IMG/VR virus record: IMGVR_UViG_3300042691_047443 | Span: 12,490-76,489 of that record | Strand: one strand, 5' to 3' | Source: a virus | Length of the DNA: 64,000 nt | Shown here: piece by piece, positions 2,185 to 29,285 of the stretch | Numbering within the stretch: the first letter of the stretch is position 1 | How the letters are laid out: each line of letters starts with the position of its first letter | Position numbers and translations under genes: made by a program | Notes under the pieces: generated by a model | What the model saw: only the letters and a program-made list of their open reading frames with translations | The model's database searches: none | Told to the model about the DNA's origin: nothing

Positions 2185-2189
2185 ATTGC

Positions 2190-2962: not shown

Positions 2963-2985
2963 AAACACCTCTTTAATAAATATGG

Positions 2986-3369: not shown

Positions 3370-3373
3370 AAAT

Positions 3374-4518: not shown

Positions 4519-4523
4519 GTGTT

Positions 4524-5911: not shown

Positions 5912-5950
5912 CCTCTTACGCTAATTCTAGCCTTAAATAGGAAGAAAAAA

Positions 5951-9994: not shown

Positions 9995-10581
9995 TAATCT
10001 AAGGTATAATTTTTACATAAGGTGTTCATCAACAAAATATTCAAATTTTCCTTGAATGGCGTCCTGAGCCATTCTGGGATGACATCATGCCAATGGTGAG
10101 GCTTATAATTGTTTCTGTCTGCCGCAACGTTGAAATGCCTATCATAATTAGGACCTTTCTCATGTACGTGACCATGAACAATATGCAAAAAATCACCCAA
10201 GGCTGATTCGTCAAACTTTTTATCGGAAAGTGACTTAAGTGGATAGTGTGACAACGCCACACCCCCTAGGTTAAGATAATCGTAAACAGCGATGAAACCT
10301 GAATCTATGTACCACTGATCCTGCTGGTGATCGTGATTACCTCTGATCAGGATCTTCTTACCGTTCATTCGCCGGATCAATTCTCTTAATTCTTCAATTC
10401 TTCCCTTTAATCCGGCCGATATGTCGCCTACAAAAACCCCGACGTCGTTTTCCTCTACCCGAGAGTTCCAGTTCTCTAACATGTGTTCGTTCATTTGGGC
10501 TGAGTCCACGAAGGGCCTGGAACAATACCTGATGATATTTTCGTGAAAATAGTGATTGTCTGATGTGAAATAAACCGTCAT
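9994..10581 (-). CDS. Calcineurin-like metallophosphoesterase
   Basis: SDNH, GD, GNHD, SHYP, HGHVH. Confidence 0.9.
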   Translation of the reverse strand: MTVYFTSDNHYFHENIIRYCSRPFVDSAQMNEHMLENWNSRVEENDVGVFVGDISAGLKGRIEELRELIRRMNGKKILIRGNHDHQQDQWYIDSGFIAVYDYLNLGGVALSHYPLKSLSDKKFDESALGDFLHIVHGHVHEKGPNYDRHFNVAADRNNYKPHHWHDVIPEWLRTPFKENLNILLMNTLCKNYTLD

Positions 10582-10582
10582 A

Positions 10583-12172
10583 TTAAATTCTCAATGTGTT
10601 CCAAATTGTGTCCTTGTTGTCCTCTGACAGCCAGGATGGTAAATTTTCCTTGAAAATTCTGCTCTCCCCTGAAGAGAGGTAATCTCTCATATCGCTTGCA
10701 CACAAACCATTTGTCAACGTCCTTGAGATCGACACGTGTGATAGTCGTTCCTTAAATTGTGGGAGACGTGTGAGGAACGACTCCAACCTTGACTTCGCAT
10801 CATCGTCGCCATCGCCTGTGGAGCCTCCATAGATTGACACAGAACCAGATGCTCCGGTCAAGAATCTTTTTGCAAACAACAAGGCTTCCGTCATAGGAGA
10901 CCCGGAAAACGAAGCATAAAGACCCGAGCCGTACATAATTTCCATCTTAGGAAAGTACACGTCCCTCCACAACGTCAGCATGTCATGTGTTGATACGTTT
11001 GAACGATCTTTCGTCGACAAGAACAACATCACTGACTTGCAACCGTCACTAAATGCACGATCAATTAGAGAGGCATGACCAGCGTGAAAAGGCTTTGCAG
11101 CCATGGGAATCAAGGCAACGTTGTCTGACTTGTCAGGTCCCAATAGGTTCAGCTTTGCGGTAAGAAACACATCATCTTGGACACTCAAAAGTGTTTTTAT
11201 GGAATGTGCTGGTAGCGTTTTTGTTCGATAAATGCGAGAAGACAGTTCTCCAAAAGTCTCCTGTAGATCACTTATTACGACGTCTTTAGTCATTTCAGCA
11301 GCTACTTTGTGAATAGCTTCCCAGTATGTTTCCTCGTCTCTTTCTGTTGCTTTGAATCTTGATTTCTTTGCGTCTCGTACTTCTTTCAAGTGTTGGTCAG
11401 GAGCAAGCACTTTGCTAAGAGATTTCCCGTCGTCGCCTGTACGTTCAATCACTACACCTTCGGATTGACCACCGAGAACAGATTGAAAATCCTCAAACAC
11501 GCCTATCAGACGTTTCATCACCTCTTCGTGACGATCGAAATCAACGTGTCGAAAAGCCGAAATCAACAATTCTCTAACGCTACCAACAGCCGAACCGAAT
11601 TCAATCGCCTCAGGTGCATTCATCCGTCCTTTAAATAAAGTTGGAAATTCACCAAGCTGTAACAATTGTCGATATTTTTCAAAGCGCTGCGCGTCATCGT
11701 GAAACATCGAAGAGCTGTACAGACGACCACGAAACTGTACAAAATTGCAGTCGCCAAAACCCACAAGGAACATGTTGTGTTTCAGCACATAGTCACGAGT
11801 AATCGTGGGCTTATTCTGTACAAACTCAACGAAAAATTCAGTGTTTCTCGGAATCTCTGCACAATCAGGGTGAACCTTCCGTAAATGATCATGCACAAAC
11901 TTATATTGAGACGTGCCGATGGAAAATTCCCGTATCTCGGAATCACGCTCAGCAAGACCACAAAATTCAGTGGCGTGAATGATGTTGTCCTTGTATGACA
12001 CAATCCAGTTTTTGGTATAATCGATAGGATCAAATACTTCACAATTTCTGATTAACGTAAGCTTTGTTCCATCAATCTTTTCCACGATCTTCAGGTGACC
12101 GTCGAAAAAAATCTTTGCCTTGCTTGCGGATGTTATTGTCTTCTTTAAGTCTTTAATCGAAATATCAAGCAT
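10583..12172 (-). CDS. Fusion of RNA-ligase-like nucleotidyltransferase and HIGH-family (cytidylyltransferase-like) domain
   Basis: EKIDG (motif I), EFFVEF, EGVVI (motif IV), K motif V; C-terminal KPFHAGH and ASDMR. Confidence 0.75.
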   Translation of the reverse strand: MLDISIKDLKKTITSASKAKIFFDGHLKIVEKIDGTKLTLIRNCEVFDPIDYTKNWIVSYKDNIIHATEFCGLAERDSEIREFSIGTSQYKFVHDHLRKVHPDCAEIPRNTEFFVEFVQNKPTITRDYVLKHNMFLVGFGDCNFVQFRGRLYSSSMFHDDAQRFEKYRQLLQLGEFPTLFKGRMNAPEAIEFGSAVGSVRELLISAFRHVDFDRHEEVMKRLIGVFEDFQSVLGGQSEGVVIERTGDDGKSLSKVLAPDQHLKEVRDAKKSRFKATERDEETYWEAIHKVAAEMTKDVVISDLQETFGELSSRIYRTKTLPAHSIKTLLSVQDDVFLTAKLNLLGPDKSDNVALIPMAAKPFHAGHASLIDRAFSDGCKSVMLFLSTKDRSNVSTHDMLTLWRDVYFPKMEIMYGSGLYASFSGSPMTEALLFAKRFLTGASGSVSIYGGSTGDGDDDAKSRLESFLTRLPQFKERLSHVSISRTLTNGLCASDMRDYLSSGESRIFKENLPSWLSEDNKDTIWNTLRI

Positions 12173-13325
12173 TCAACTTCCTATTATAGTACGAAGCGAT
12201 CATCTTCTCTACGTGATGATCATACACCTTCAGAAATTGAAGTTCATTCCTGAACATATTTACCGCAGGCATCTTTGTGCTATAATCATTCGATTCATCA
12301 AAAATGTCGAGGACTTGGCTTTTTTGACCGAAAAGTTTGTGATCTACGAAGTCAAGGTATATGTCACATATAACCTTTTCTTCAAAGAAAGAGTTCAGCA
12401 GCGTCAACAGGCCCAGAAATGATGAGAACAAGTTCAGATCATCTTTAGTCGGGACTCGTGACACGAGCATTTCAAAAATGTCAGATTTACTCCTGACAAA
12501 AATAGAATCACGTGCCTCAGTCTTTTTATATGCAAATTTTCCCGACACCATGACAGGAGTACAATCACGGTAGAATTGTTGTTCAGCTGCAACTCTCAAT
12601 CCTTTGTCAACAGAAAATGACAAAGTGTGAACATGGTCTGATTTTGCAAGCCTAATTTTTTCGAACGGTTCTAACGGGCTTTGTGGCGTTAACAACACTG
12701 CATCATGTCTGGATGATACAACAGTTGCAATACTTCTCAACAGAAGTTTGTGGAACACGCCTTTGACGCCTGCCTTTACGTCAAACCAATTTGATGACTT
12801 AGAAAATTTAATGAACTCGAGCGGACCATTAGCATCATATGGTGTCCCTTCAAAATCTATCTGAACCTTTAACTTGTTTAACTCATTGAGTTCATATTCA
12901 AAAACAGAATTTATCTGACCGTTTGTTAATGAAGGCTTCTGACCTAAAAAGCTATGCTTTTCGGTAATTTTTTTACCCTGCATTGAACTAAGAACCTCGG
13001 ACAGCGCACGTAAATTATTGTCTGGTACTGTTATGTCAAGATCGCCGATCTTCGGCTTGTATCGAACAAACTCCTCAGAGGAAATACCGTAGTCAAACAA
13101 GTGAGATGAAGAACCGTTGAAAACAGCGCATGTTGAAAAAAGATCGCTCCTCACCCCTTTTGGCCAAAGATTTAGACCGACGTGATCATGATACGCAGAA
13201 TCTATCTGCTCAAACAAAAGTAAGAAATCATTCACAAAACGATCCCTATCTAGGATCCTGAAGTCAGGTTTGTCAGGCCTTTGATTGAGTCCATTAACGT
13301 CAACAACAACAACATTCCCACCCAT
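12165..13325 (-). CDS. Pol-beta-superfamily nucleotidyltransferase-like protein
   Basis: NGSS...GDLDI and QIDF pattern (GS, DxD, third D). Confidence 0.65.
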   Translation of the reverse strand: MGGNVVVVDVNGLNQRPDKPDFRILDRDRFVNDFLLLFEQIDSAYHDHVGLNLWPKGVRSDLFSTCAVFNGSSSHLFDYGISSEEFVRYKPKIGDLDITVPDNNLRALSEVLSSMQGKKITEKHSFLGQKPSLTNGQINSVFEYELNELNKLKVQIDFEGTPYDANGPLEFIKFSKSSNWFDVKAGVKGVFHKLLLRSIATVVSSRHDAVLLTPQSPLEPFEKIRLAKSDHVHTLSFSVDKGLRVAAEQQFYRDCTPVMVSGKFAYKKTEARDSIFVRSKSDIFEMLVSRVPTKDDLNLFSSFLGLLTLLNSFFEEKVICDIYLDFVDHKLFGQKSQVLDIFDESNDYSTKMPAVNMFRNELQFLKVYDHHVEKMIASYYNRKLNA

Positions 13326-13331
13326 CTTAAT

Positions 13332-13880
13332 TTAATCCTGGTTCAATACTACGAACGGAGATTTTACGCTGGGAGAATACTCCCCTGCGACCGCAAGGGC
13401 CCTTTCTATCTTTTGCTTTGGCGTCAGCGATATGTCATGGTAAAGAACATTCATCGCGCCTAGCGCATATGCAAATCCAGAGCCTGACACTGCAAACTTT
13501 TGTCTTAAAGAACTTACGTTAAAGTCGGCCTCAATCACGTATATGTTTCCCTTGAATCCAAGAACGATCTCGGAGTCATGAGCATCTCCAGTTTCTTCCT
13601 TGAAAAGAACGCCCTTTGTGTCAAGCAGATTTCTCAGGCACTCCACAAAGTCGCACACTAGATATTCCATGTGTGCCTTATTGTTGAGAAACTTGGGAGG
13701 CCTGAGAGACCAACGTAACAGTTGTCCTATTCTGAAACTGCCTGAAAATCCAATAAGAAACTCACCGTTCTTGAAAACCTTTTCATCTTGACGAATGAGA
13801 ACCTCATCCTCCCGATAAGAAGCGGAATCTGCACCCATCCAGATGGAACCATTATCTTCAAGTGCGACAACGCAGGTCAC
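13332..13880 (-). CDS. HslV/proteasome-beta-like Ntn protease
   Basis: N-terminal Thr (MTCVVAL), GADS, KVF, GFSG, GSG..YALGAM. Confidence 0.85.
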   Translation of the reverse strand: MTCVVALEDNGSIWMGADSASYREDEVLIRQDEKVFKNGEFLIGFSGSFRIGQLLRWSLRPPKFLNNKAHMEYLVCDFVECLRNLLDTKGVLFKEETGDAHDSEIVLGFKGNIYVIEADFNVSSLRQKFAVSGSGFAYALGAMNVLYHDISLTPKQKIERALAVAGEYSPSVKSPFVVLNQD

Positions 13881-14674
13881 TTGAAAGCCTTTCCATATAC
13901 AGACTCAGGATAAGCGTCTCGATACTTTGACCTTGTAATACTCAACTCGCCAGTTTTCAAAAAGTGATCGACTAGGTAAAAATCTCTCTCATATACATGG
14001 ATGCTTCCGACCTGCCAGTGCAGATTACCTGCAGGATAACCAAGCTCACTCGCTACCTTCTCTAACATATGTTGCTGCCAAGATCTATCATTCTTGTATC
14101 CAATTAGCGCATCGTTACTACGCATTTGCACGATAGCATGGCACTGTCCATTTCTTATAACATACTGAACTGCGTTGGTACACATGAAATCACTGCGACC
14201 GTTTGCGCTGTAATCTTCCCACATTGAAGGTCTTGTGTAGATGATGATTGCCCGTCGACTTTCTGGGTTCTTCCTCAATTCGCCTACGACCTTTTCGAAC
14301 TGAGATCCGTTCTCGGGGCTTCGGACGCACCACCCATAGTTAGAGTTGATCTTACCGTCGGCACAGGCAATTGCACGCCAAACAGCAGGTGCGCCACCGG
14401 GAAAATCATTCACGTTAAGCGACATGGAGTCATACCACTCTTCTTCACGCTTTACGTAATCATGGTTCACTTCTCCGAAAATAACTTCGTCGCCTGCAAT
14501 GAAACTGGCACCGACAATCTCAATCGTGCGAGACCCCATGAGATTGGTCATTGATGCCTCTCGATTGATGGACGTGAAGTGATTCCCCAAAAATAGATTT
14601 GCGAACTCATTCCTAATATCGATCACATTATTGTAATTCACTTGTTTAACCTCATGTTGCTGATCCATGACCAA
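13877..14674 (-). CDS. dCMP hydroxymethylase-type thymidylate synthase homologue
   Basis: INSNYG, SRRA, DFMCT (catalytic Cys), MRSNDALIGYKND (Asp at the pyrimidine-specificity position, as in T4 gp42), SIHVYE. Confidence 0.85.
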   Translation of the reverse strand: MVMDQQHEVKQVNYNNVIDIRNEFANLFLGNHFTSINREASMTNLMGSRTIEIVGASFIAGDEVIFGEVNHDYVKREEEWYDSMSLNVNDFPGGAPAVWRAIACADGKINSNYGWCVRSPENGSQFEKVVGELRKNPESRRAIIIYTRPSMWEDYSANGRSDFMCTNAVQYVIRNGQCHAIVQMRSNDALIGYKNDRSWQQHMLEKVASELGYPAGNLHWQVGSIHVYERDFYLVDHFLKTGELSITRSKYRDAYPESVYGKAFK

Positions 14675-15606
14675 TTGTTATTATACCACTCGATAGTACG
14701 TTCCAGACCTTCCCAGAATCTAACAAGGGGACTATATCCCAACGTTATATGGATACAGTTAACGCTTGCTTGAGTGTGCATCACATCGCCCGAGCGCCAT
14801 GGTGCATCGTGGCTTTTTGCATCTGGAAATCTTCCTTTAAGAAACTCAAGGATTTCTTTATTTGTTGTCCTGTCGCCGCAGGCAACATTGAAACAAGCGG
14901 CCGCAAGATCGTTATGGTGCGCTGCTGCACGCACGCAGGCATCTGTCACGTTATCAACGTAGCACATGTCTCGTGACTGTGAACCGTCTCCGTCACTGCG
15001 CATCGACATGCCTTTGTTTATGGCCGTAAGCCACGCAGAAACCGCAGTTGAATATGGAGAATCTCCCAATTGATTTGGTCCGAATACGTTGAAGAACCTC
15101 AAGGCAACTGAATCAAGTTCGTACAGATCATAATAGATCTTCAGGTAATCTTCAATAATTGACTTCTGCAACGCATAGGGGGACTTTGGGTCCTTCTTTG
15201 TGGCTTCAACCGTTGGAAGCTTTTGAGCCCCACCATAGACAGAGGACGAAGATGCAAACACAAAGCGTTTTACGTTGTTGCGACAGGCTTCCATCAATTG
15301 AAGCGTCTTATTTACGTTGGTTTCGTGCGTCTCAATGGGGTGTTCCACAGAATAACTCACCCGTGGTACAGCTGCGAGGTGAAAAATCACATCAAACCAC
15401 TTTGACCTAATCCTCGAAAGAACAGACTCAGAAGAAAAGTCTTCCTTTAAAAAGAGATTTGGATTGGCTGCAAAAAGAGGGGGCAAAAATTCCGTGTGAC
15501 CATTTGAAAGATCATCAACACCTGTGACATCCCAACCTTCCTTGAGACACCTTGCTACGAGGTTACTTCCGATAAAACCTGCAGCACCTGTGATCAAAAC
15601 TCGCAT
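14638..15606 (-). CDS. NAD-dependent NDP-sugar epimerase (GalE/WbpP-like)
   Basis: GAAGFIG, HLAA, ASSSSVYG, YALQK, RFFNVFGP. Confidence 0.9.
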   Translation of the reverse strand: MRVLITGAAGFIGSNLVARCLKEGWDVTGVDDLSNGHTEFLPPLFAANPNLFLKEDFSSESVLSRIRSKWFDVIFHLAAVPRVSYSVEHPIETHETNVNKTLQLMEACRNNVKRFVFASSSSVYGGAQKLPTVEATKKDPKSPYALQKSIIEDYLKIYYDLYELDSVALRFFNVFGPNQLGDSPYSTAVSAWLTAINKGMSMRSDGDGSQSRDMCYVDNVTDACVRAAAHHNDLAAACFNVACGDRTTNKEILEFLKGRFPDAKSHDAPWRSGDVMHTQASVNCIHITLGYSPLVRFWEGLERTIEWYNNNWSWISNMRLNK

Positions 15607-15627
15607 CTAAATCTCCTGAATGAAACA

Positions 15628-15656
15628 AATTTACAACAGAAAAAGCTCATGTACAC
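15628..15656 (-). promoter_or_regulatory. Sigma70-like promoter
   Basis: GTGTAC-N17-TAAATT upstream of an AGGAG RBS. Confidence 0.5.
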
Positions 15657-15661
15657 ATGAC

Positions 15662-16984
15662 TCAAAGTAGGTTCATCTTACGCATTGCATGTGTGGTTGT
15701 CGACTCATAGGAACAACGATCCCTCACAACGTTGAGCAACGGAACCATCGAATTGCACCACTCTTTTGTGCCCTTGTTTTGCTTAACGTGATCTATGAGA
15801 TTGGACGCAACTTCAACTATGTCAGAGAAATCTGACTTTGCTAGAACGGGTACTTTAAACCCAAGCTCAGATGCATCTCGAATGATTCCGGAGTATTCAA
15901 AATTATTCAACCATAGAGGTAAACAGCCCAATTCTACACACTCTCTGGCGACAGTTCCACCATACGTGTCTTGGTCATACAGGCCTAAAGCGATGTCGAC
16001 ATGCGTTGCAACAACCTTGAATTCATCACGTGTAAACGAATCAGGAACAAGAGAGACGTAACCGTTGTGACCGCACTCTGACGTAAGTTCCTCATTGGAG
16101 AACTTCTGGCTTGGGTTCCCAGCAAGAACGACGAAATCATTTCGTCTCTCATGTAAACGTGGAAGTACGTCAAACATGAATTTGCCACAATTTGTGTAAT
16201 CTGACGATCTTCCTTTGCCACCGATCCGGTTTGGAACAAAGATAATTGTCTTGCCTTGCTCACGCCATCGATTGAAGACATTGGGATCAAATCGGATCCC
16301 ATCAAGGTCAGGCGCGGACCTAATCTCCTCGATCGAATATCCGTCATCCCACGGTGATGATTTTGCCATTACAGCGTCCACGACGCCATCACGGAATAAC
16401 TTACGTGCCTCTGCCTCAAATTCAGAAAGCGCGGACCCACATTGCCAAAAGTTCCAATCTGCCTTTAAGGCGGCCTCACATTGACCCAACCACAATGATG
16501 CATCAATCGGAAACTTGGGACAGGACGGCACATCTACAAAGTGTGAATGAACATAAAATTTAGGTTGATATCCACCTTCAAGGAGGAACATCGCCTTAAA
16601 GTTTCTAAGGTGCATCGGATCGTTGAGATACACCGCATCATATCTCACTGTAACTTCCGTCTTGTGCCTTGAAAGACCTAGTCTACGTGACAGCGAAGAA
16701 ACGTCAAAGTTGTACCGAGTCGCAAGTGCATTCGGAAAAATGTCATGCTCCACGTAGTGTACACGTGAACCCCATGGAATATCAGGATTTACCTGATACG
16801 GTGTGGTGACCACAGACCCTTCGGAAAGAAGGGGACCCATAACGTGAATCACGAGATCCGGATTCTGTTTTAGCATTTCACGGACACGACCCATGACCAT
16901 CTGCCATCCAGAGTCACACTCAAGGATGAATCTGCCTCGTGTGTCATAGTTAGAAAGTTGTGTTTGAATAAGTAATTTTTTCAT
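15662..16984 (-). CDS. GT-B fold glycosyltransferase (putative DNA/nucleotide glycosyltransferase)
   Basis: HSH, PNR, and DTYGGTVARECVELGCLP resembling the GT-B E/D-x-F/Y-G...E...G-x-P motif; sits between an epimerase and a dNMP kinase. Confidence 0.7.
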   Translation of the reverse strand: MKKLLIQTQLSNYDTRGRFILECDSGWQMVMGRVREMLKQNPDLVIHVMGPLLSEGSVVTTPYQVNPDIPWGSRVHYVEHDIFPNALATRYNFDVSSLSRRLGLSRHKTEVTVRYDAVYLNDPMHLRNFKAMFLLEGGYQPKFYVHSHFVDVPSCPKFPIDASLWLGQCEAALKADWNFWQCGSALSEFEAEARKLFRDGVVDAVMAKSSPWDDGYSIEEIRSAPDLDGIRFDPNVFNRWREQGKTIIFVPNRIGGKGRSSDYTNCGKFMFDVLPRLHERRNDFVVLAGNPSQKFSNEELTSECGHNGYVSLVPDSFTRDEFKVVATHVDIALGLYDQDTYGGTVARECVELGCLPLWLNNFEYSGIIRDASELGFKVPVLAKSDFSDIVEVASNLIDHVKQNKGTKEWCNSMVPLLNVVRDRCSYESTTTHAMRKMNLL

Positions 16985-16997
16985 GTGTTTCTTTGTG

Positions 16998-17540
16998 TTA
17001 TCCCAGAAAAGAAATGATATCAGACACTTCTCTGTCTAGATTTTCGTCGTCGACATTCAGCTTCATATAATCACAGGCTGTGATTTCATGTAGGTATTTT
17101 TCATAGTGATCGTCTAGCTTCTGCAGGGTTTCTTGCTGAATTCTAGAATCTAGATCATCAATGATTCCTGTGTACGAACTTCTGCGACAAAAGATTATTT
17201 TTGCCCCCAAGGATGCCCACTGCTTGTCCATGTGGACAAGAAACTTCTCATCAGTCTTGCGATGAAACACGGATGAATAGACCCATTCACACGGAAAACC
17301 CCTGTCAAATATAACTCCGTAACCGGTCTGCTTCAAAAGATCAAGTACGCGAGGATCGGCATGCCGCAATTGTGACAGAAACAATTCATTTTTGTCATCC
17401 ATCGACAAAAACGATGAATGTTCAGAGGAGGCCTTAAAATAAGGAACACTTAGTCGGACCGACAACTCTTTTGCAATCTGTGTCTTGCCACACATATCAG
17501 GACCAACCATGAACACTAAACGTTGTTTTTGTTTCAACAT
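16998..17540 (-). CDS. dNMP (thymidylate-like) kinase
   Basis: GPDMCGKT P-loop; FDRGFPCEWVY. Confidence 0.82.
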   Translation of the reverse strand: MLKQKQRLVFMVGPDMCGKTQIAKELSVRLSVPYFKASSEHSSFLSMDDKNELFLSQLRHADPRVLDLLKQTGYGVIFDRGFPCEWVYSSVFHRKTDEKFLVHMDKQWASLGAKIIFCRRSSYTGIIDDLDSRIQQETLQKLDDHYEKYLHEITACDYMKLNVDDENLDREVSDIISFLG

Positions 17541-17546
17541 GAAGAT

Positions 17547-17575
17547 ATCTTAACTTAAGTTATGTCGCTGTACAC
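17547..17575 (-). promoter_or_regulatory. Sigma70-like promoter, leaderless
   Basis: GTGTAC-N17-TAAGAT-N6-ATG. Confidence 0.6.
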
Positions 17576-18099
17576 ACTTCAAAATCGATGATGTGACCGT
17601 GCGTACCCGCACCCTTCTTGACATGTCCATGTTGGGGGCAGTGAATTGTGTACTGTGCTGCGTCTGGATAGATTTTAATGATCTCTCCTGTTTCCTTTTT
17701 GCCCTTAAATGTAAAGGACACCTGATCTCCTAAAGCAAACTTTGCAGTGACCCCGTGTGCAAGAATCCAGCTATGATATACAATCTCCTTATGTGCAAGG
17801 TAACGCTGATGTGCAACGTCTTCAAGCAAGTCAACAAGATCGGCATCAGGGTCCCAGCCAGCGTGTTCCAAGTTCTTGGCGATGTGATACGCATCGTCGT
17901 CGTACTCAATCGCTGAAAAAATCTCAGCCTTTATCACCTCAAGCTCTTGAGCTGAAGGAGCCCCGCCTTCTTGGCACACCCACTGGATGATTTTTGGTGT
18001 GACGCGTTCTGAAGTGAGAGAGTTGACTTCCTTGCTAAGATAGCGAGGTCGCGGCGGAAGAGGAAGGTCATCGAATAGCTGAAGTTGCATACCTTTCAT
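17560..18099 (-). CDS. Hypothetical protein with C-terminal SH3/KOW-like domain
   Basis: 179-aa ORF; FALGDQVSF...GEIIKI. Confidence 0.6.
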   Translation of the reverse strand: MKGMQLQLFDDLPLPPRPRYLSKEVNSLTSERVTPKIIQWVCQEGGAPSAQELEVIKAEIFSAIEYDDDAYHIAKNLEHAGWDPDADLVDLLEDVAHQRYLAHKEIVYHSWILAHGVTAKFALGDQVSFTFKGKKETGEIIKIYPDAAQYTIHCPQHGHVKKGAGTHGHIIDFEVCTAT

Positions 18100-18131
18100 A
18101 GGTTAATCCTTTAACAGGTCGTATAAAGATT

Positions 18132-18320
18132 TCACTTTTTATTTCCATAACCATCAGCGTACCACCCACCGCCTTGCAGGAGGAAACCTGAGCCCCCCGT
18201 GATGAGCCTGTTCCGAGTCTCTGAACCGCACTTTGGACACGTGGCTCGAGCTTCTTCTTTCATCGACTGATTCACTTCAAACTGATTTTCGCATGCATCA
18301 CATTTATAATCGTACTTCAC
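18132..18320 (-). CDS. FmdB-family zinc-ribbon protein
   Basis: YDYKCDAC...CPKCG...GFLLQGGGWYADGY; GTG start overlaps the dnaE stop. Confidence 0.85.
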   Translation of the reverse strand: MKYDYKCDACENQFEVNQSMKEEARATCPKCGSETRNRLITGGSGFLLQGGGWYADGYGNKK

Positions 18321-21300
18321 GTTATCTTCCTCATTTTCCATTGGGATGTTGAAAGTCCAAAATCATCTCTCTTGACTTCTGCACAGAACAAGGTAAATGC
18401 ATCAGGCAGGTCCTTTTGCCCCCAAACTGTCACTCGTTGAACCTTGCCTGTAGGGCCTGCAACATAGATTTGGACGTATTCCTTTCCTGCCTTTGAGGAT
18501 TTTTTGATACCTGTCACAGGCGTTGCTCCCTTCTTCGGGGAAGTTGGAGATACAACCATCCAACACAATTGCGGATCTCCTTGTTCAACCTCTTCGATCG
18601 ATTTGATGCCCCTTGTTTCAAAGGCGTTCAACACATTTGAATCTATCAGGCTGATGATGTCAATCGCACCAAACACCTCCACCATGTTTTGCGCCCTCTC
18701 CGTCGGAGACCATTCCTCTACGGAAGAATTTTGCCTCAGTAAGTTGTAAAAATTCTTGAGTCCTTCGTGAGGATCAGACTTTGTCGAGCGTTTGATGAGT
18801 GCCGAGTGATCAAATTCAACATCCTCCGTGACTTCAATTCCCTTCTTTTTCCTTGTCACGGACTCAACATGCGATCCAAGCAAGGTTTGGTACATGTGAT
18901 TGTAGTTGTTAAATAACATACCTTCACCAACCATGTTCATGGAGTCAAAAGCCCCAATCTTTATCAGGGCCTCAAGCGCCTTCTTGTTGAACTTACTGTG
19001 TCTCCATTCAAAGTTTTTGTCCCACAGCAGCTCTTCAATCGTAGAATAGGGCCGATTTTGGACAATCTCTTCAAGAGCGGAAGAACCGACACCCTTACAC
19101 GATGTCATAGAAGGCATCAATCTTCTTCCCGGAAGAACTGTCCAACCAGACGTCGCAAGATTGATATCGATTGGTACGATCTGATAACCCAGAGACTTTA
19201 CCTCACCGAAGGCTTTGGCACGCGACTCCGGGTTGTTTGACATTGACTCAAGGTATGCGGAAATCCACTCCTCCTCGTGGTAGGTGAGCAACCATGCACA
19301 CCAAAACGAATCAATTGCGTATGCAACTGCATGTGCCTGATTGAAACCGTATCCCGAGAAATACAGAATCTTGTCGTAGAGGTTGTTTGCCACAGGTTCA
19401 AGGTAACCATTTTTTACGCAACCAATCACAAAGCTCGATCGCGTCTCCTCTGCTGCTTTCTTTGCTGCCTCGCCCCCTGAGATAGAACGCTTCATGATGG
19501 CTCGACGAACCTCATCGCACTGCTCCTTAGGGAATCCGGCACACTTCTCTGCCAACTCCATGACCTGTTCCTGGAAGATGATCAGGCCTCGTGTCTTTTC
19601 CAGGATTTTGTTGATTCTTTGATCACCCCATTCGTACTCTTTTCCTTCCCTTGCCTCAAGGTACAGCTTGTCCACGTTTGCAGCAAGAGGACCCGGTCGA
19701 TAGATTGACGTCAGCGCCGCAATGTCAATGATGCTCTTTGGTTTTGCCTTCACAAAGAGTTTCTGCGCGCCTTGAGACGTCAGCTGGAAGATACCAGACC
19801 ACTTTGCTTTTTCATATACCTCATAAGGTTTTGGGTCATTGAAATCGATCTTACTGGGGGCCATGTGTTCGTCATACCATGCCCTGATGTCGGAAAACGT
19901 GGGATTCTGATTCCCGCCCTTGCGAAGGACCAATTCAATTGTCCTTTCAATCAAACGAAGGGTCTCAAGGCCGAGAAGGTCGTACTTGATGAAGTTGCCA
20001 ATATATTCTAGGTGTTTAAAATTTACCCCTTCGACCCATGGAGACTGTGGCTCACCACCGGATGTGATGAGTGGCATCTTTCGTGGAAGATCATCTGCGA
20101 TGAGAACGCCGCCTGCGTGGCGACCCAGTGAACGATTCTGTTTGAAGAGAATCTTGATGGATTCGGCAACGTGTGGATACTTGTCGATGAAGTCCTTGAA
20201 AGTAGGAGAGTGGGCGTATGCATCATCATATTGCAGCACGAAAAGGTTTTTGTCATCGCCATGCTTCGTGGTCGCCCTTCTTACGTCCTCCTCAACCGTC
20301 TTTGTTGCTGCATTTACCTCTTCAAAGGGAATTCCGTAAAACTTGCTTACGTCCTTGACGAGACTTTTCACCTTGAAGGTGTTGTAGTTCGAGATAGGAA
20401 CCACGTTGTCAAATCCGAAGTAGTTTCGCAACTGTTCAAGGACCTTATCTCTGTCGGCAAGGTCGGTATCAATGTCAGGTGCACCTTTACGATACACCGA
20501 GAGAAAACGGCTGAAAGGCAAGTCCCAAAAGACAGGATCAAGGTCTGTAATGTACAGTACGTAATTGACTAGAGAACCTCCTCCCGATCCACGTCCGGGG
20601 CCGACAAGGCACACTTTTCTCGCAAGTTCAATGATTTTCTGGTACGAGATGAAATAGTCTGCGTTCTTCATCGTCTTGATGACGCCTAGTTCTTCACGTA
20701 AACGCTCGATGTACTCAGGCTTATCCTGTAATCCTCGCTTCACCATTCCTTCCTTACAGAGGGAAACAAGGTGATTGAACGAAGAAATGTCTTTGGGAAC
20801 CAACCTTTGGGTTGGAAACTTGGAGGTCCTGTCTGGCGGCACTTCGCCGATAACGTGATGCGCGATGTCGTGAGAGCGTTCGATGGCCTCCAGCACCTCA
20901 TCATCATCGTAAAAGCCTGTCTCCTCCTTAGAGCGGAGGTACTCCTCCCATACCTGAGAGGCGTTCTTGGGGTACAGCTCACACTTCAGATCATCCTTTG
21001 ACTTGGGGAGAGAATCTGGGCTGTACGTGGTGTAGTTCATGAACCCGAGCTTCTTATACAGCTCACGCTCTTTCCACAGCTCGGGCCGGTGGTAGTGCGA
21101 ATCGCAGGTTACCACGAGCTGTTTAGTTGTCCCCGTACGACGTGCAAACTCGAGAATCGCACGATTGACAAGGTTCTGAGCGGGAAGCCTATTGAACTGC
21201 AACTCGAGAAAGTAATTCTCTCGACCCACCGCAGAGGTCATCATGTCGTACACATTGCCGATGGCATTTACGCACTTATTCAAGAGGACGGCGTCATCAA

Positions 21301-22009
21301 GCAACTTCTCGTTCAGGTTGTCAAAAGCCACTCTCTGCAACTCTTGAAAGACAACCCAGGACGGAAAACCACCGAGGCAAGCGGAGGAAACAACAATATC
21401 ACCGTTTTTTCCAGCCTCACGCAGCATACCGAGATCCATTCGAGGAAACCTATAAAAGCCATGTAGATATGACTTAGAGGTTGCCTCGAACAGAGACAGG
21501 AGACCACGCTGGTTCTTCGGTAGGATCACCATGTGATGGCGTCGATTCACTGGATTAAAGTGCTTCGTCGACTTTGACTCGTCCTCATTCTCAATGGTGA
21601 GAGCGTTTGTAGTCTCAATCTCTTCTGTCTCATCCTCAGAGTCCACCCGAGCGATGATCCTCGTCTTCAGGTCTTCCTGTTGCTTCTGCAACTTTGAAGC
21701 AGCCTTCTTGTCGATGGCGGCCTGATCAGCCAGATCCTTGTCACGCTGCCACTGGGCAAGATCTGGGTGGAAGTACGCCTCGATTCCAGGAATGTACTTA
21801 AACTTTCCCTTGTCGGAAGAATTCCACTTTTCTACCCAAAGCTGGGCGTGTGCATATGAATTAAAGTTACCGTGTTCAGTGAGAGCATGGGCGTCAAGGC
21901 CGTTCTCCATGCACCAAGTAAAATGCTCATCAGGATAGCCTAAGCCGTCAAAGGGGCTGAAGCCTGAATGACCGTGAAGGCCGACGAAACGATTGGGTGT
22001 GCGAGACAT
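18317..22009 (-). CDS. dnaE: DNA polymerase III alpha subunit (C family)
   Basis: PHP domain (HGHS, TEHG, DSHY), GRGSGGGS, PDIDTD, KYDLLGL, IFQEQ, YGFN. Confidence 0.96.
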   Translation of the reverse strand: MSRTPNRFVGLHGHSGFSPFDGLGYPDEHFTWCMENGLDAHALTEHGNFNSYAHAQLWVEKWNSSDKGKFKYIPGIEAYFHPDLAQWQRDKDLADQAAIDKKAASKLQKQQEDLKTRIIARVDSEDETEEIETTNALTIENEDESKSTKHFNPVNRRHHMVILPKNQRGLLSLFEATSKSYLHGFYRFPRMDLGMLREAGKNGDIVVSSACLGGFPSWVVFQELQRVAFDNLNEKLLDDAVLLNKCVNAIGNVYDMMTSAVGRENYFLELQFNRLPAQNLVNRAILEFARRTGTTKQLVVTCDSHYHRPELWKERELYKKLGFMNYTTYSPDSLPKSKDDLKCELYPKNASQVWEEYLRSKEETGFYDDDEVLEAIERSHDIAHHVIGEVPPDRTSKFPTQRLVPKDISSFNHLVSLCKEGMVKRGLQDKPEYIERLREELGVIKTMKNADYFISYQKIIELARKVCLVGPGRGSGGGSLVNYVLYITDLDPVFWDLPFSRFLSVYRKGAPDIDTDLADRDKVLEQLRNYFGFDNVVPISNYNTFKVKSLVKDVSKFYGIPFEEVNAATKTVEEDVRRATTKHGDDKNLFVLQYDDAYAHSPTFKDFIDKYPHVAESIKILFKQNRSLGRHAGGVLIADDLPRKMPLITSGGEPQSPWVEGVNFKHLEYIGNFIKYDLLGLETLRLIERTIELVLRKGGNQNPTFSDIRAWYDEHMAPSKIDFNDPKPYEVYEKAKWSGIFQLTSQGAQKLFVKAKPKSIIDIAALTSIYRPGPLAANVDKLYLEAREGKEYEWGDQRINKILEKTRGLIIFQEQVMELAEKCAGFPKEQCDEVRRAIMKRSISGGEAAKKAAEETRSSFVIGCVKNGYLEPVANNLYDKILYFSGYGFNQAHAVAYAIDSFWCAWLLTYHEEEWISAYLESMSNNPESRAKAFGEVKSLGYQIVPIDINLATSGWTVLPGRRLMPSMTSCKGVGSSALEEIVQNRPYSTIEELLWDKNFEWRHSKFNKKALEALIKIGAFDSMNMVGEGMLFNNYNHMYQTLLGSHVESVTRKKKGIEVTEDVEFDHSALIKRSTKSDPHEGLKNFYNLLRQNSSVEEWSPTERAQNMVEVFGAIDIISLIDSNVLNAFETRGIKSIEEVEQGDPQLCWMVVSPTSPKKGATPVTGIKKSSKAGKEYVQIYVAGPTGKVQRVTVWGQKDLPDAFTLFCAEVKRDDFGLSTSQWKMRKIT

Positions 22010-22015
22010 GTGCCA

Positions 22016-22045
22016 ATCATAACTTGTGTCAATGCTAGTTTACAC
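22016..22045 (-). promoter_or_regulatory. Sigma70-like promoter, leaderless, for dnaE
   Basis: GTGTAA-N18-TATGAT-N6-ATG. Confidence 0.55.
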
Positions 22046-23048
22046 TAGAAAGTTCTTCCATGAACCACTTGATCGTACGACGGACCCCTTCCTCAAGGTC
22101 TACGGTGGGTTCCCATCCAAGAATCTCTTTTGCACGAGAAATGTCAGGTCTTCTCTGAAGAGGATCATCCTTGGGCAGGGGCATGTTGATCAATTCGGGT
22201 TTTGTCGCACCATACAACAGGCGATTCACGAGGAGGGCAAGATCCATTACTGTGAACTCTGCGGGATTTCCAAGATTGATCGGCCCCCCTGGATTTTTCG
22301 ACAGTCCTGCGAGTGTCGTGATGCCCCTGATCAAATCAGACACATAGCAAAAACTTCGGGTCTGCTTTCCACCGCCGTAGATGGTGTATGGCTGCCTCTT
22401 CAAGGCCTGAACAATGAAATTACTGACGACTCGACCGTCAAGGGGATCCATGTTTTCGCCGTACGTGTTGAATATCCTGACGAGTCTTGCATCAACACCG
22501 TGCTTGTGCAGATAATCGTAACACAAGGCCTCAGCGGCGCGCTTTCCTTCATCGTAACAGGATCTTGGGCCATATGAATTGACGTTTCCCTTGTAGGATT
22601 CCGACTGTGGCGAGACGTCTGGGTCTCCGTACACTTCAGACGTTGACGCGTGAACAAACACAGAATTGTGCTTTCGAGCAACATCCAGTATGTTTACGGT
22701 GCCTGCGGTACAGGTAAGAAGCGTCTCGACGGGAATCTCCTGATATCTAGGAGGTGACGCAGGACACGCAAAGTTGTATATCAGGTCGATTTTTCCACCG
22801 TTTGTAGTAATGAAATCATCAACTGCCGCGACGACGTCAAGTGTTGAACATATGTCAACTTTTCGAATCATTGCACGTTCAGGACTGTACATCTTGCGCA
22901 CAAACATCGAATGATGAGAATCTTCTCGGGAGGAGGAATAGTTGTCAAGTCCTAACACATTGTCACCAGCCTTTAAGTGATGAATCGTGAGATGACTTCC
23001 GAGAAAACCAGCCGCACCAGTGATCATAACATTCTTACCCATAACCAT
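22035..23048 (-). CDS. UDP-glucuronate decarboxylase (UDP-xylose synthase)
   Basis: GAAGFLG, ACPASP, STSEVYGDP, GNVNSYGPRSCYDEGKR, RIFNTYG, DDPLQRRPDI. Confidence 0.92.
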   Translation of the reverse strand: MVMGKNVMITGAAGFLGSHLTIHHLKAGDNVLGLDNYSSSREDSHHSMFVRKMYSPERAMIRKVDICSTLDVVAAVDDFITTNGGKIDLIYNFACPASPPRYQEIPVETLLTCTAGTVNILDVARKHNSVFVHASTSEVYGDPDVSPQSESYKGNVNSYGPRSCYDEGKRAAEALCYDYLHKHGVDARLVRIFNTYGENMDPLDGRVVSNFIVQALKRQPYTIYGGGKQTRSFCYVSDLIRGITTLAGLSKNPGGPINLGNPAEFTVMDLALLVNRLLYGATKPELINMPLPKDDPLQRRPDISRAKEILGWEPTVDLEEGVRRTIKWFMEELSSVN

Positions 23049-23116
23049 CCTTTGCTCAAGATTAAAGAGCGCAAAATTACTATATAATAAGTGTACAATG
23101 TGTACAAGGAACAAAC

Positions 23117-23398
23117 ATGAACAATCAAAGGCTCAATGAAAGTGATGTCACGTACTACAATCAAATTCTGACCGAGAGGTTTGGAAGACCTATCGGTGAT
23201 TCACCCTCAACCGTCGGAGTCCCAGATGAACGTGAGGAACTCACGGAGAAGAAAAAAGGCCCATCAAAGAAGACAGCGAGAAAGATCTTGAAGGGAACCA
23301 AGACCTTTAAAGACAAGGTTAAAAAAGTGTCTTCTTGGGCAGAAGATCCAGAGGCCATGGCCGGTTGGTTGATGAAACGTGCGGACTACAAGAAGTAA
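23117..23398 (+). CDS. Small basic hypothetical protein
   Basis: AGGA RBS; fills the gap between two minus-strand genes. Confidence 0.65.
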   Translation: MNNQRLNESDVTYYNQILTERFGRPIGDSPSTVGVPDEREELTEKKKGPSKKTARKILKGTKTFKDKVKKVSSWAEDPEAMAGWLMKRADYKK

Positions 23399-23401
23399 TG
23401 A

Positions 23402-23956
23402 TCAACTCATACAGCGCTGCTTGAGCAAGTACACGTGAGATTCGTGCTTATCCTCAATGCCTGCAATCATATTATCGAGACCACGTGTAAGAAGTCCGCA
23501 TTCCTTGAGACATTCAACGAGGTGAGCGGCAACCTTAAGGAAGGTCATTTCCACCTGATAAGATCGACGTATCAGTTCCGAAGTCTGCGCAACTGTCGAT
23601 GTAGGACCATAGTTTTGAACCAATTTATTACACTGAGCTGTGACAAGGCCAATGTCTACGTTATGTATCGAACCTAGGCCCACAACTTTCTCGGCCACCA
23701 TGTCGATTTCGTCCTCAATACATTCGTACAACCTAGAAAACAGGAGGTGGTCGCCATAAAATGGATCGCCTTTTGCAATCCAGTGATGTGTATGATGAAC
23801 CTTATTCAAGAACTGAAGATAGGATAGAAGTACAGAGAGTTCAGCGTAACGAACCCCTCCCCACTCAGCGATCATGTTATCAACTACAATTCCAGTGTTG
23901 GGCTCGACCACTAGCGATAACTCAAACGTCTCTTTTAAGGTTCTTCTCTTCATCAC
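23402..23956 (-). CDS. Dps/ferritin-like protein
   Basis: HHTHHW..G..FYGDHLLF..LY...IDMVAEK; HESHVYLL. Confidence 0.82.
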   Translation of the reverse strand: MMKRRTLKETFELSLVVEPNTGIVVDNMIAEWGGVRYAELSVLLSYLQFLNKVHHTHHWIAKGDPFYGDHLLFSRLYECIEDEIDMVAEKVVGLGSIHNVDIGLVTAQCNKLVQNYGPTSTVAQTSELIRRSYQVEMTFLKVAAHLVECLKECGLLTRGLDNMIAGIEDKHESHVYLLKQRCMS

Positions 23957-25326: not shown

Positions 25327-25854
25327 TCACTTACGTTTGATAAACATTGACCAATCTTCGTGCCACTCTTTGCCCCTTGCGTTTTCCCAAAATTGAAATG
25401 GACTTGGCTCTGCGGGAATCGTCAAAAGGGGCATATTTGCTTCGTGCGGCGTCTTATTGGCTTTTTTTCTATTGCAGAACTTACAAGACGCAACACAGTT
25501 CTTCCACGAAGTTTTTCCGCCACGAGAACGCGGTTGAACATGATCGATGGTTGCGGAATTTTTACCTAGGTCCATTCCACAGTATTGACAACACCAATTG
25601 TCACGCGTGTAGATTGCAGATTTTCTGAATCTTGGTGGTTGCCACTTTCTGTTCACCCTATTTAACAAACGAATAGTTGCGGGAAGCGCGATGGATTCCT
25701 TTGTGGTGTTAATAACCTGCTGAGACCAGGTACTTAACTTACCTCCTGTGTCCAATATTTCTGCCCTACCTTTGTGTACGAGTAGAAATGCACGTACATT
25801 GCTGACAAAGTGCATAGGAGAGTAGTCAGAATTGAGGAGAAGTGCCTTGCTCAT
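25327..25854 (-). CDS. HNH endonuclease
   Basis: ALLLN..Y, RDNWCCQYCG, TIDHVQPRSRGG..SWKNCVASCKFCNRKK. Confidence 0.92.
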   Translation of the reverse strand: MSKALLLNSDYSPMHFVSNVRAFLLVHKGRAEILDTGGKLSTWSQQVINTTKESIALPATIRLLNRVNRKWQPPRFRKSAIYTRDNWCCQYCGMDLGKNSATIDHVQPRSRGGKTSWKNCVASCKFCNRKKANKTPHEANMPLLTIPAEPSPFQFWENARGKEWHEDWSMFIKRK

Positions 25855-25894: not shown

Positions 25895-26236
25895 CTATTC
25901 CCAAACTACAAGATTCAACCTCTCTAAAAGAAATTTTATCTGTTCCACAAGAAGCAGCGATTCCTCTTGCTCTATCTTTGCGGCAGACAGTCTTTTTTTG
26001 ATTCTTTCAAGTTTTGATATCGAAAGGTCTTTTGACGATTGACGTTCAAGAAGATCTTCCAGTCGGTGTCGACGCGAAGACGAAGACGTTAATTTAAAGC
26101 TGTACGTTTGCCAGAGTTTTTTAACGTACTCTGGGTCGTTCTCTAGATCTTTTTGCTCGTCTTTTGCTTCTTTACTTTTCTTCGTCAACGATCCCGGACG
26201 ATAATTTTTCAACGAAGCGGCCATAGTGTCCCTCAT
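25895..26236 (-). CDS. Hypothetical basic coiled-coil protein (start uncertain)
   Basis: Fills the gap on the coding strand; overlaps the MTase end. Confidence 0.4.
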   Translation of the reverse strand: MRDTMAASLKNYRPGSLTKKSKEAKDEQKDLENDPEYVKKLWQTYSFKLTSSSSRRHRLEDLLERQSSKDLSISKLERIKKRLSAAKIEQEESLLLVEQIKFLLERLNLVVWE

Positions 26237-26957
26237 CCTGTTCTATTGCGATGAACTTTCTGCCTAACTTGCGAGCCGCAAATGCAGCAACACCAGATCC
26301 GGCAAACGGATCTATTACCCAGTCACCTTGATTTGTGTTTACTTCAATTGGTATTTCAAATATTTTTGTCGGTTTTTGTGTTGGATGAACCTTTCCCGAA
26401 AATAGTTCATTTACGTCCATCCATACGTTAGTCCTTCTATAAAATTCGCTTTTGGCAGGATATTTGGCATTATAACCCGCATAACCTCTTTTTGTTTCAA
26501 GAAGCGGAACGTTAAAAACGGCGGGTTTCTTTATGTCTCCCTTGATCATGTACAATAGTTCTTCACGCGTAGATAGGTAATTGTGTTGTACGCCATAAGC
26601 ACGCTTCTTCGACCAGGTGATCAGGTTTGAAACGTTCATATCTGACTCTGATTCTATACGCGAAGCGTATTCAAAGAACGGCCTAAATCCTGCAACACCA
26701 TAACCTCCCCAAACATACATTGCGCCCTGTGGAACCAGCAAATTGGAATAGGATTTGGTCCAAGAGATCATCCAGTCAACAAATTCAGACTGTGTTCCAC
26801 TCCATCTGTCCCAACCATGGCGCAATATATTTCCGTAAGGAGGATCTGTGCACACAACGTGAACCTTGTCAACGATTGTTTTCACAAAGGAAACGACTTC
26901 TTCGCTGGTTGAGTCTCCGCAGATTGCAACGCCGTCATCGAATCTTTCAAACTTCAT
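26172..26957 (-). CDS. DNA N6-adenine/N4-cytosine methyltransferase (beta class)
   Basis: DPPY precedes HPTQKP and DPFAGSG. Confidence 0.92.
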   Translation of the reverse strand: MKFERFDDGVAICGDSTSEEVVSFVKTIVDKVHVVCTDPPYGNILRHGWDRWSGTQSEFVDWMISWTKSYSNLLVPQGAMYVWGGYGVAGFRPFFEYASRIESESDMNVSNLITWSKKRAYGVQHNYLSTREELLYMIKGDIKKPAVFNVPLLETKRGYAGYNAKYPAKSEFYRRTNVWMDVNELFSGKVHPTQKPTKIFEIPIEVNTNQGDWVIDPFAGSGVAAFAARKLGRKFIAIEQDEGHYGRFVEKLSSGIVDEEK

Positions 26958-28625: not shown

Positions 28626-29285
28626 TCATTCAAATGGCGGACAGGTGCTACCGTCTTCCAGGATCAACCCATGAGCCCGAAGACTAAGATCAAACTTACC
28701 AGTGTCACGAACACACTCCAGCATTTTATACGCAACCTCTCTGATCTCCAACTGCGCATGCTTCGAGTACCTCAATTGCAAAAAATGGACAAAGCTTCTA
28801 AAATTAAACATAACATCAGCTGTCAGCTGAACACCGTATGGAAGATAAAGTCGAGCTGATTCTTTGGCACGCTTTCTTGGTAAACCCTTGTCAATCAGGC
28901 GCTGAAGCGTCTCATGATAATTCTTAAGAGAAAGATTCAAGTGCTCAATGTATCGAGTCTTCTCTTCATCGTCCCAATCAACAGGAACATAAAACTTGTC
29001 ATCCTTCAACTCCTTATAACGAGCTGACTCACCGTTAAGAGACACACCTGCTCGATGCTTGATAAGGTGAATGTGGGAAGCAATGTCGGTGGTGACAAGA
29101 AAATGGATGCTCGACTTTTCAAACGGCGTTCCGTGATTGTCACGAGCCAACATATTTAAGAGATTACCAATCCTGGAACGTTTTTCGTCGGTTAGGTCTC
29201 TTGAGGTGGAGGTCCATGCTGAAAGAGCATGAGTTTCATCTCCGCCATAAAATCCAATCAACTCTACTTTATTTTCATTCAGCAT
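28626..29285 (-). CDS. thyX: Flavin-dependent thymidylate synthase
   Basis: HGTPFE, KHRAGVSLNGESARY, ESARLYLP, NFRS, LRYSKHAQLEIR. Confidence 0.92.
   Translation of the reverse strand: MLNENKVELIGFYGGDETHALSAWTSTSRDLTDEKRSRIGNLLNMLARDNHGTPFEKSSIHFLVTTDIASHIHLIKHRAGVSLNGESARYKELKDDKFYVPVDWDDEEKTRYIEHLNLSLKNYHETLQRLIDKGLPRKRAKESARLYLPYGVQLTADVMFNFRSFVHFLQLRYSKHAQLEIREVAYKMLECVRDTGKFDLSLRAHGLILEDGSTCPPFE

Follow-up and report, generated by a model that had tools for sequence, protein, structure and literature searches.

How might a phage decorate the cytosines of its DNA with a sugar other than glucose? The question is raised by a stretch of 64,000 nucleotides of viral DNA, hereafter the window, that is part of one contig of 76.5 kb (IMG/VR record IMGVR_UViG_3300042691_047443, bases 12490-76489). 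In the window, a cassette of four genes encoding a nucleotide kinase, a glycosyltransferase (GT) that we call GT440, a nucleotide-sugar 4-epimerase and a homologue of thymidylate synthase (ThyA) lies downstream of the replicative polymerase gene dnaE, on the other side of which is a gene for UDP-xylose synthase (UXS). On the basis of these five genes, an original prediction made from the sequence held that the phage forms a modified dCMP, phosphorylates and incorporates it, and then decorates it with xylose, arabinose or a galacto-sugar. All five open reading frames (ORFs) are present on the minus strand at the positions it had assigned. What survives of the proposed pathway is its T4-like core, the formation of 5-hydroxymethylcytosine (hmC) before replication followed by glycosylation with a non-glucose sugar; the identification of this sugar as a pentose is not established. 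We consider it likely that hmC is made and that GT440 glycosylates it, the identity of the sugar aside.

The ThyA homologue aligned with T4 dCMP hydroxymethylase (gp42; PDB 1b49) over residues 42-255, with an E-value of 4.4e-74 and ~52% identity. In this alignment the active-site residues Cys148, Glu60 and Asp179 are kept, and the motifs FMCTN and REEEWY of the window's protein align to FMCTN and RELEWY of the T4 enzyme. The pyrimidine discriminator is N177 in E. coli ThyA, equivalent to D179 of T4, and in E. coli ThyA numbering, which we use for the other residues, the motifs SDFMC...RSND...GYKND place an acidic Asp at position 143 and an Asp at 177 while keeping Asp169. The acidic residue at 143 and the Asp at 177 are common to the T4 enzyme and to the RB69-type ThyA homologues, which make 5-hydroxy-dCMP and for which replacement of Asp169 by Asn is diagnostic (Lee et al. 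2026, PMC13326640). The window's protein has Asp rather than Asn at this position, as do all 26 aligned ThyA homologues that adjoin GT440 in related loci; these 26 take two forms, one gp42-like and one of ~340 aa with the motifs DVPCT and MRSSD..YD. The original reading of RSND...GYKND as the mark of a cytosine-directed, gp42-like enzyme is borne out. As to its product, both 5-hydroxymethyl- and 5-hydroxy-dCMP had been entertained; the latter is disfavoured because Asp169 is kept, and, judged by its active-site residues, the enzyme should make 5-hydroxymethyl-dCMP.

On its gene content, the window has a supply of dTMP that is independent of the ThyA homologue. As had been pointed out, it encodes ThyX and thymidine kinase (TK), to which we can add a dCMP deaminase. 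Adjoining thyX, and separate from a trimeric dUTPase at 35853-36359, is a gene for an all-alpha NTP pyrophosphohydrolase that, by analogy with T4 gp56, is a candidate dCTPase and would exclude unmodified dC.

Structural comparisons agreed with the kinase and GT-B assignments of the original prediction. The kinase carries the P-loop GPDMCGKT, its profile matches deoxyguanosine kinase (2jas), and Foldseek matched its AlphaFold2 (AF2) model (pLDDT 91) to YorR, thymidylate kinases (TMKs) and deoxynucleoside kinases (dNKs) with E-values of 3e-7 to 1e-5 and TM scores of 0.6-0.7. GT440 matched no family at E 0.01 in Pfam, PHROG or NCBIfam, no PDB entry by sequence and, by tblastn, none of 50,697 phage genomes; a search with PF00534 (Glycos_transf_1) found nothing on the contig, and at the sequence level GT440 is a family of its own. 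PF09198 (T4 β-glucosyltransferase) likewise gave no match to GT440, and the PF09198 control gave none either. The AF2 model of GT440 (pLDDT 92) adopts a GT-B fold that matches BshA (Z 28.9, rmsd 3.6 over 352 residues), MshA, PimA and PglA (Z 26-27), and also 7qsg and 8ixp, with a Foldseek E-value of 2e-12; the model of the "DNA alpha-GT" of cyanophage S-TIM5 is among its mid-rank matches. The family has several hundred metagenomic homologues, with 147 cluster representatives among 1.84e9 proteins. In the N-terminal domain, residues R33, R35, R74, R90 and K157 are invariant.

The neighbourhoods of cassette homologues were taken from IMG/VR loci. In 28 loci the gene order is kinase, GT440, epimerase, ThyA homologue with the diagnostic Asp, HslV-like peptidase, TK, dCMP deaminase and superoxide dismutase (SOD), and in 25 of these the epimerase adjoins GT440 although homing endonucleases have often inserted at other points of the cassette. 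Besides homing endonucleases, the genes inserted into the relatives' cassettes encode an RNase T-like exonuclease, a helicase and proteins of unknown function, and no further sugar enzymes. Co-occurrence of all five genes in related phages, proposed as a check on the original prediction, is seen in part: kinase, GT440, epimerase and hydroxymethylase recur in 28 contigs, and UXS is found in 19 of these records. Homologues of GT440 (32-34% identity) also lie beside the Asp-bearing ThyA homologue in two small phages with a PolA-type polymerase (L026 and L028), in L028 beside a TMK-like kinase as well, and these phages, which share nothing else with the jumbo-phage clade, are a second, independent home of the family. 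The loci concerned (L028:6647-11233 and L026:6668-10161) lie in phages of ~50 kb with a DUF5906 primase-helicase.

The grouping of the cassette genes is beyond chance, recurring as it does in 28 related contigs and, in part, in unrelated phages. Three lines of evidence go beyond shared ancestry, namely the PolA-type phages, the replacement of the transferase in sister clades described below, and the same gene adjacency in Rhizobium phage RL38JI and in T4. Because of this linkage, and because GT440 is the sole glycosyltransferase found on the 76 kb contig, we infer that GT440 is the cassette's transferase; its acceptor would be DNA.

Widening the set to 80 DnaE loci showed that the Asp-bearing ThyA homologue, the kinase and the epimerase persist. 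These loci include sister clades (L038-L081; for example L048:13595-18382 and L040:5999-9596) whose DnaE is ~50% identical, and in 18 loci the position of GT440 is taken by an unrelated family of ~350 aa; the two families never co-occur, and hhalign detected no relation between them. The ~350 aa family tentatively resembles T4 β-glucosyltransferase: it has an Atlas feature score of 0.97 to PF09198 clusters, and hhalign gave a probability of 47% (E 2e-4) over 86 C-terminal residues, while the PF09198 HMM detected nothing in the family and nothing in the control either. In seven sister-clade loci a gene for UDP-galactopyranose mutase (PF03275, E ~1e-78) is inserted in the cassette, which suggests that these phages make galactofuranosyl-hmC. 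With the mutase in the cassette, the epimerase there must supply UDP-galactopyranose; the epimerase is therefore a donor-supply enzyme, and the cassette recruits tailoring enzymes. UXS is absent from 17 of the 18 sister-clade records.

Which donor the window's phage would use depends on two enzymes, both identified much as had been predicted. The epimerase is an extended short-chain dehydrogenase/reductase (SDR) whose closest solved structures are WbgU (E 1.3e-50) and WbpP, and its triad segments SSS, SPYALQK and NVFG align with the catalytic positions of WbgU; an Atlas search with this protein returned generic SDR clusters only. UXS matched human UXS1 (2b69) with an E-value of 3.7e-88 and 299 bits, the next SDR family scoring ~100 bits, and contains the motifs HASTSEVYG (with its TSE), YDEGK, RIFNTYG and QTRSFCYVSD. 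The UXS gene lies 25 nt from dnaE, in the same orientation, and 5 kb from GT440; in relatives, too, it is next to dnaE wherever checked, within 5-20 kb of the cassette. The records containing GT440 and no UXS orthologue are mostly small fragments, and the presence of UXS tracks one epimerase subtype (PRVSYS) and not the other (PRVE[YF]S). One UXS orthologue, in the record of locus L009 (G012:C1:53828-54859), is interrupted by two in-frame stop codons (TGA and TAA) and may be a pseudogene.

In the pathway that we propose, the gp42-type enzyme, so classed by its sequence, would convert dCMP to 5-hydroxymethyl-dCMP, the TMK-like kinase would phosphorylate this product towards the triphosphate for incorporation by DnaE, and the MazG-like NTP pyrophosphatase might deplete dCTP. 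After replication, GT440 would move a sugar onto the 5-hydroxymethyl group, the donor being the product of the adjacent 4-epimerase, that is, a galacto- or arabino-configured UDP-sugar and not host UDP-glucose. The leading candidate route to this donor would run from UDP-glucuronate to UDP-xylose through UXS and from there to UDP-β-L-arabinopyranose through the epimerase, which would yield L-arabinopyranosyl-hmC in the DNA, or xylosyl-hmC if the transferase took UDP-xylose directly; the location of the epimerase next to the transferase favours L-arabinopyranose. A pentose is our tentative choice of sugar, at somewhat less than even odds and with L-arabinose more likely than xylose; a galacto-hexose or N-acetylhexosamine (HexNAc), donated by UDP-Gal or UDP-GalNAc derived from host pools, is the chief alternative and somewhat less likely, and the rest of the odds falls to other sugars or to an acceptor other than DNA. 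To the full reading we assign a probability of roughly 0.4: that this clade puts a pentose (β-L-arabinopyranose or α-xylose) on hmC by means of a phage SDR route (UXS plus 4-epimerase) and an unrecognised, GT4-like family of DNA glycosyltransferases, that its sister clades swap in the ~350 aa family and UDP-galactopyranose mutase, and that the cassette is a modular sugar diversifier in abundant freshwater phages.

A number of observations weigh against this reading. The phage is uncultured and its putative pathway is read from its genes; gene order on its own is weak evidence, because the unrelated HslV, TK and SOD genes are equally syntenic within the one clade; and GT440 is acidic overall, with a pI of ~5.9 as against 9.05 for T4 β-glucosyltransferase. 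Most of the contrary observations concern the pentose. A UDP-glucose dehydrogenase, which the original prediction suggested looking for in the rest of the genome, was not found on the window's contig, and relatives have only a truncated NDP-sugar dehydrogenase, which we do not assign to UDP-glucose: its C-terminal domain is missing, and it is at much the same distance from dehydrogenases of UDP-Glc, UDP-ManNAc and GDP-Man. The records G004, L018 and L027 have GT440 and no UXS, the PRVSYS epimerase subtype occurs without UXS in L043, and UXS occurs together with the ~350 aa transferase in L038. The epimerase itself is nearest to HexNAc 4-epimerases and scores under every NCBIfam equivalog cut-off (172 against 760 for TviC, 150 against 262 for GalE). 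Moreover, the nearest phage UXS from outside the clade (47% identity) lies in a cluster with GT2, GDP-mannose 4,6-dehydratase (GMD) and DegT genes, in a complete 84 kb phage that has no ThyA homologue.

To these points can be added a possible consumer of UDP-xylose in relatives. Near-complete relatives carry a glycan island of ~25-30 kb (L029/L030, G002:C1:26000-60000, with equivalents in G001, G003, G005 and G011) that contains 5-6 GT1 and 2-3 GT2 genes and genes for GDP-mannose 4,6-dehydratase, a PseB/CapD-like dehydratase, a DegT aminotransferase, the truncated NDP-sugar dehydrogenase and NAMPT. The island, which is >100 kb from the cassette in complete relatives and off the window's contig, could serve virion or cell-surface glycosylation, and it could be where UDP-xylose is used. 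The strongest competing explanation, doubtful though we find it, keeps the hmC-GT440 chemistry and places UXS outside it: the epimerase would make UDP-Gal or UDP-GalNAc from host UDP-Glc or UDP-GlcNAc, and UXS would feed a separate island for virion or cell-surface glycans. It draws on the likeness of the epimerase to WbgU, WbpP and TviC, with a small gatekeeper residue that is Thr where these three have Ser. The same Thr is found in the UXS-linked and the mutase-linked epimerase subtypes, whose pocket residues are alike save for PRVSYS versus PRVE[YF]S, and the sister-clade epimerases, at 43-48% identity, must make UDP-galactopyranose for the mutase in their cassettes. The at least eight GTs of the relatives' islands, the setting of the out-of-clade UXS and the three cases of GT440 without UXS fit this explanation as well. 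Speaking against it, within the clade UXS is never inside the glycan island and keeps to its place beside dnaE, its presence follows the epimerase subtype, and G004 and the sister-clade records G035, G040 and G044 lack UXS though they carry the island's dehydrogenase.

As to G004, which is the one large GT440 record without UXS, its NDP-sugar dehydrogenase lies beside a different SDR of 287 aa, with a UDP-galactopyranose mutase 10 kb off (G004:C1:97058-99597 and 109318-109920). This gene content hints at a different sugar repertoire.

It is improbable, in our judgement, that hmC stays unglycosylated or is otherwise modified while GT440, the epimerase and UXS act on a virion protein, a host envelope polymer or a small molecule. 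GT4-like enzymes do mostly use lipid, small-molecule or polysaccharide acceptors, the acidity of GT440 would suit such a role, and gene order in jumbo phages is only loosely functional, as the syntenic HslV and SOD genes illustrate. Against this stand the GT440 homologues beside the Asp-bearing ThyA homologue in unrelated small phages, the mutual exclusion of GT440 and the second family at one position of the cassette, the kinase/GT/ThyA-homologue adjacency shared with RL38JI and T4, and the location of GT440 in a region of early replication and nucleotide genes that is distant from both the structural genes and the glycan island. Least probable of all is that the product of the ThyA homologue is 5-hydroxy-dCMP, as for RB69, or 5-methyl-dCMP, as for XP12. 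The 5-hydroxy synthases of the RB69 type do share the changes of the ThyA homologue at 143 and 177 and were long annotated as hydroxymethylases, but all those tested have Asn where the window's protein has Asp169, its active site aligns with that of solved T4 gp42 at 52% identity, and an acidic residue at 143 speaks against a methylase.

The proposed pathway, which combines a pentose or other non-glucose sugar with hmC, can be set beside several known systems. In T4, hmC is made and glucosylated by gp42 dCMP hydroxymethylase, gp1 dNMP kinase, gp56 dCTPase and the α- and β-glucosyltransferases, with host UDP-glucose as the donor. The window resembles T4 in its orthologous-type hydroxymethylase and in the proposed sequence of pre-replicative hm-dCMP, then kinase, then GT; moreover, T4 b-gt adjoins gene 42 near the polymerase, and the window's GT is likewise near the hydroxymethylase and dnaE. 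Unlike T4, the window has a transferase for which searches of PDB sequences and of the 50,697 phage genomes detected no relation to T4 α- or β-glucosyltransferase, a kinase of the TMK/dNK fold among whose matches T4 gp1 does not appear, a 4-epimerase and UXS of its own where T4 uses host UDP-glucose, and a DnaE-type polymerase on an unrelated jumbo-phage backbone. The putative donor route has a bacterial counterpart in the Ugd, Uxs and Uxe enzymes of, for example, Sinorhizobium meliloti, in which UXS and then a GalE-family 4-epimerase yield UDP-L-arabinopyranose for polysaccharide. The window likewise encodes UXS and a GalE-family 4-epimerase, whose action on UDP-xylose is putative here.

Phages RB69, DLP3 and HY126 carry arabinosyl-5-hydroxycytosine, the D-arabinofuranose of which is made from ribulose-5-P by an isomerase, a kinase, a phosphatase and a pyrophosphorylase (Lee et al. 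2026, PMC13326640). Like these phages, that of the window has a ThyA homologue with Asp at 143 and 177, a dNMP kinase, a putative DNA GT and, we propose, a phage-made non-glucose UDP-sugar, and arabinose may be common to both. Unlike them, it keeps Asp169 where their enzymes, which make 5-hydroxy-dCMP, have Asn, and its candidate SDR route would lead to L-arabinopyranose or xylose. The UDP-arabinofuranose route (Afh) of RB69 and HY126 would call for an arabinose-5-P isomerase, a fused kinase/pyrophosphorylase and a HAD phosphatase near the cassette; no SIS or HAD domain was detected in the ~58 window ORFs scanned with Pfam, about ten small ORFs being outside that scan. Rhizobium phage RL38JI (Pootjesviridae) has, in an experimentally supported cluster, the same trio of TMK-like kinase, GT-B enzyme and ThyA homologue, and the models of its DNA glycosyltransferases share the PDB neighbours 7qsg, 8x3q and 8ixp with GT440, although tblastn against the 50,697 phage genomes detected no sequence similarity between them. 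RL38JI also has a phage NDP-sugar mutase, as the sister clade has UDP-galactopyranose mutase; it differs from the window in making 5-hydroxycytosine, which is hexosylated (galactose/glucose) with the use of different sugar enzymes. Finally, Shewanella phage Thanatos carries a pentose, putatively xylose, on cytosine and encodes a UDP-xylose-making enzyme (PMC12838424), which is a UDP-xylose pyrophosphorylase, unlike the window's UXS; its ThyA homologue is a 5-hydroxy synthase according to Lee et al. (PMC13326640). Full-text literature searches returned no paper in which the donor for modifying phage DNA is made by UXS or by another SDR route. In the window, hmC chemistry of a known kind would be paired with a transferase family that is new and a sugar that probably is.

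The contig is a fragment of the genome of an uncultured jumbo phage, since related contigs reach 309-340 kb; CheckV put its completeness at 23%, and the window is about one-quarter of a freshwater jumbo myophage genome of roughly 330 kb. Its major genes, all on the minus strand, include those for replication (DnaE, DnaB, RecA, a gp32-like protein and a 5'-3' exonuclease), for nucleotide metabolism (ribonucleotide reductase, ThyX, TK, dCMP deaminase and dUTPase) and for a myovirus tail (sheath, tube and baseplate). Near-identical sequence is present in freshwater, lake and river metagenomes from several studies. We take the phage to have no close cultured relative because its DnaE is <30% identical to that of any cultured phage, and megablast of the region against the 50,697 phage genomes gave no match. 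A scan of positions 13000-23600 for promoters and terminators found no more sites than in shuffled sequence. In several relatives dnaE is interrupted (for example L009:4518-6035), with the finger domain as a separate ORF or the match spread over ~5 kb, and these interruptions are probably inteins or homing endonucleases. The features of the cassette and of nucleotide supply are listed in Table 1.

Table 1. Positions in the window of the cassette genes, dnaE and genes of nucleotide supply
Feature	Position	Strand	Remarks
dCMP deaminase	8970-9407	-	Pfam dCMP_cyt_deam_1 E 1e-19
Thymidine kinase (TK)	9404-9994	-	Pfam TK E 8e-39
dCMP hydroxymethylase, T4 gp42 type, ThyA superfamily	13877..14674	-	Pfam Thymidylat_synt; PDB 1b49
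NAD-dependent SDR, GalE/WbgU/WbpP/TviC-type NDP-sugar 4-epimerase	14638..15606	-	Pfam Epimerase E 6e-52
GT440, orphan GT-B glycosyltransferase, GT4-like (retaining type), proposed hmC-DNA glycosyltransferase	15662..16984	-	AF2 model, GT-B fold
P-loop nucleotide kinase, thymidylate-kinase/deoxynucleoside-kinase fold, proposed hm-dCMP kinase	16998..17540	-	PHROG thymidylate kinase E 1.2e-7
179 aa protein between kinase and dnaE	17560..18099	-	PHROGs of unknown function only; kept here in 7 related loci
DnaE-type replicative polymerase	18317..22009	-	1230 aa; cassette downstream across clade; 80 related loci found
UDP-glucuronate decarboxylase (UDP-xylose synthase, UXS), possible donor-tailoring enzyme	22035..23048	-	ORF to 23114, likely ATG start at 23048
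All-alpha NTP pyrophosphohydrolase, MazG/dimeric-dUTPase-like, 122 aa	27981..28349	-	PF08761 E 1.2e-5; PHROG nucleotide pyrophosphohydrolase E 1.6e-12
ThyX flavin-dependent thymidylate synthase	28626..29285	-	Pfam Thy1 E 7e-35

Other genes of the window lie outside these functions. Just downstream of the hydroxymethylase, positions 9994-13880 encode a phosphoesterase, a 529 aa protein (10583-12172) whose nucleotidyltransferase domain has the HIGH motif, a 386 aa protein of unknown function and the HslV-like peptidase, a gene set that is found upstream of dnaE in L043. An N6/N4 DNA methyltransferase (26172-26957) adjoins an HNH endonuclease (25327-25854) and may constitute a second layer of DNA modification. 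Auxiliary genes that are unusual for a phage, at 1458-8666 and 27552-27911, encode a Nudix hydrolase, a pterin-4a-carbinolamine dehydratase, a carbon-nitrogen hydrolase, an Fe/Mn superoxide dismutase and Hsp20, and positions 56667-63829 encode a 559 aa protein with C-terminal pentapeptide repeats and two adjacent tail-sheath paralogues, one of 992 aa and the other of at least 494 aa.

If the proposed pathway is correct, the few known DNA glycosylations of phages, with glucose in T4, arabinofuranose in RB69 and galactose/glucose in RL38JI, would be joined by one that uses a new family of transferases and a new route to the donor, the donor being made by decarboxylation and epimerisation of a nucleotide sugar and not taken from host UDP-glucose or from pentose-phosphate salvage. 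The enzymes of the cassette could be used to label 5hmC with non-glucose sugars. DNA that carries glycosyl-hmC is resistant to restriction enzymes and to Cas nucleases, and in certain sequencing libraries it is recovered too rarely or its bases are misread. For the phages themselves, the pathway would mean that uncultured freshwater jumbo phages replicated by DnaE widely use hmC chemistry of the T4 type, and that a single genomic slot holds two interchangeable transferases together with interchangeable sugar-tailoring genes.

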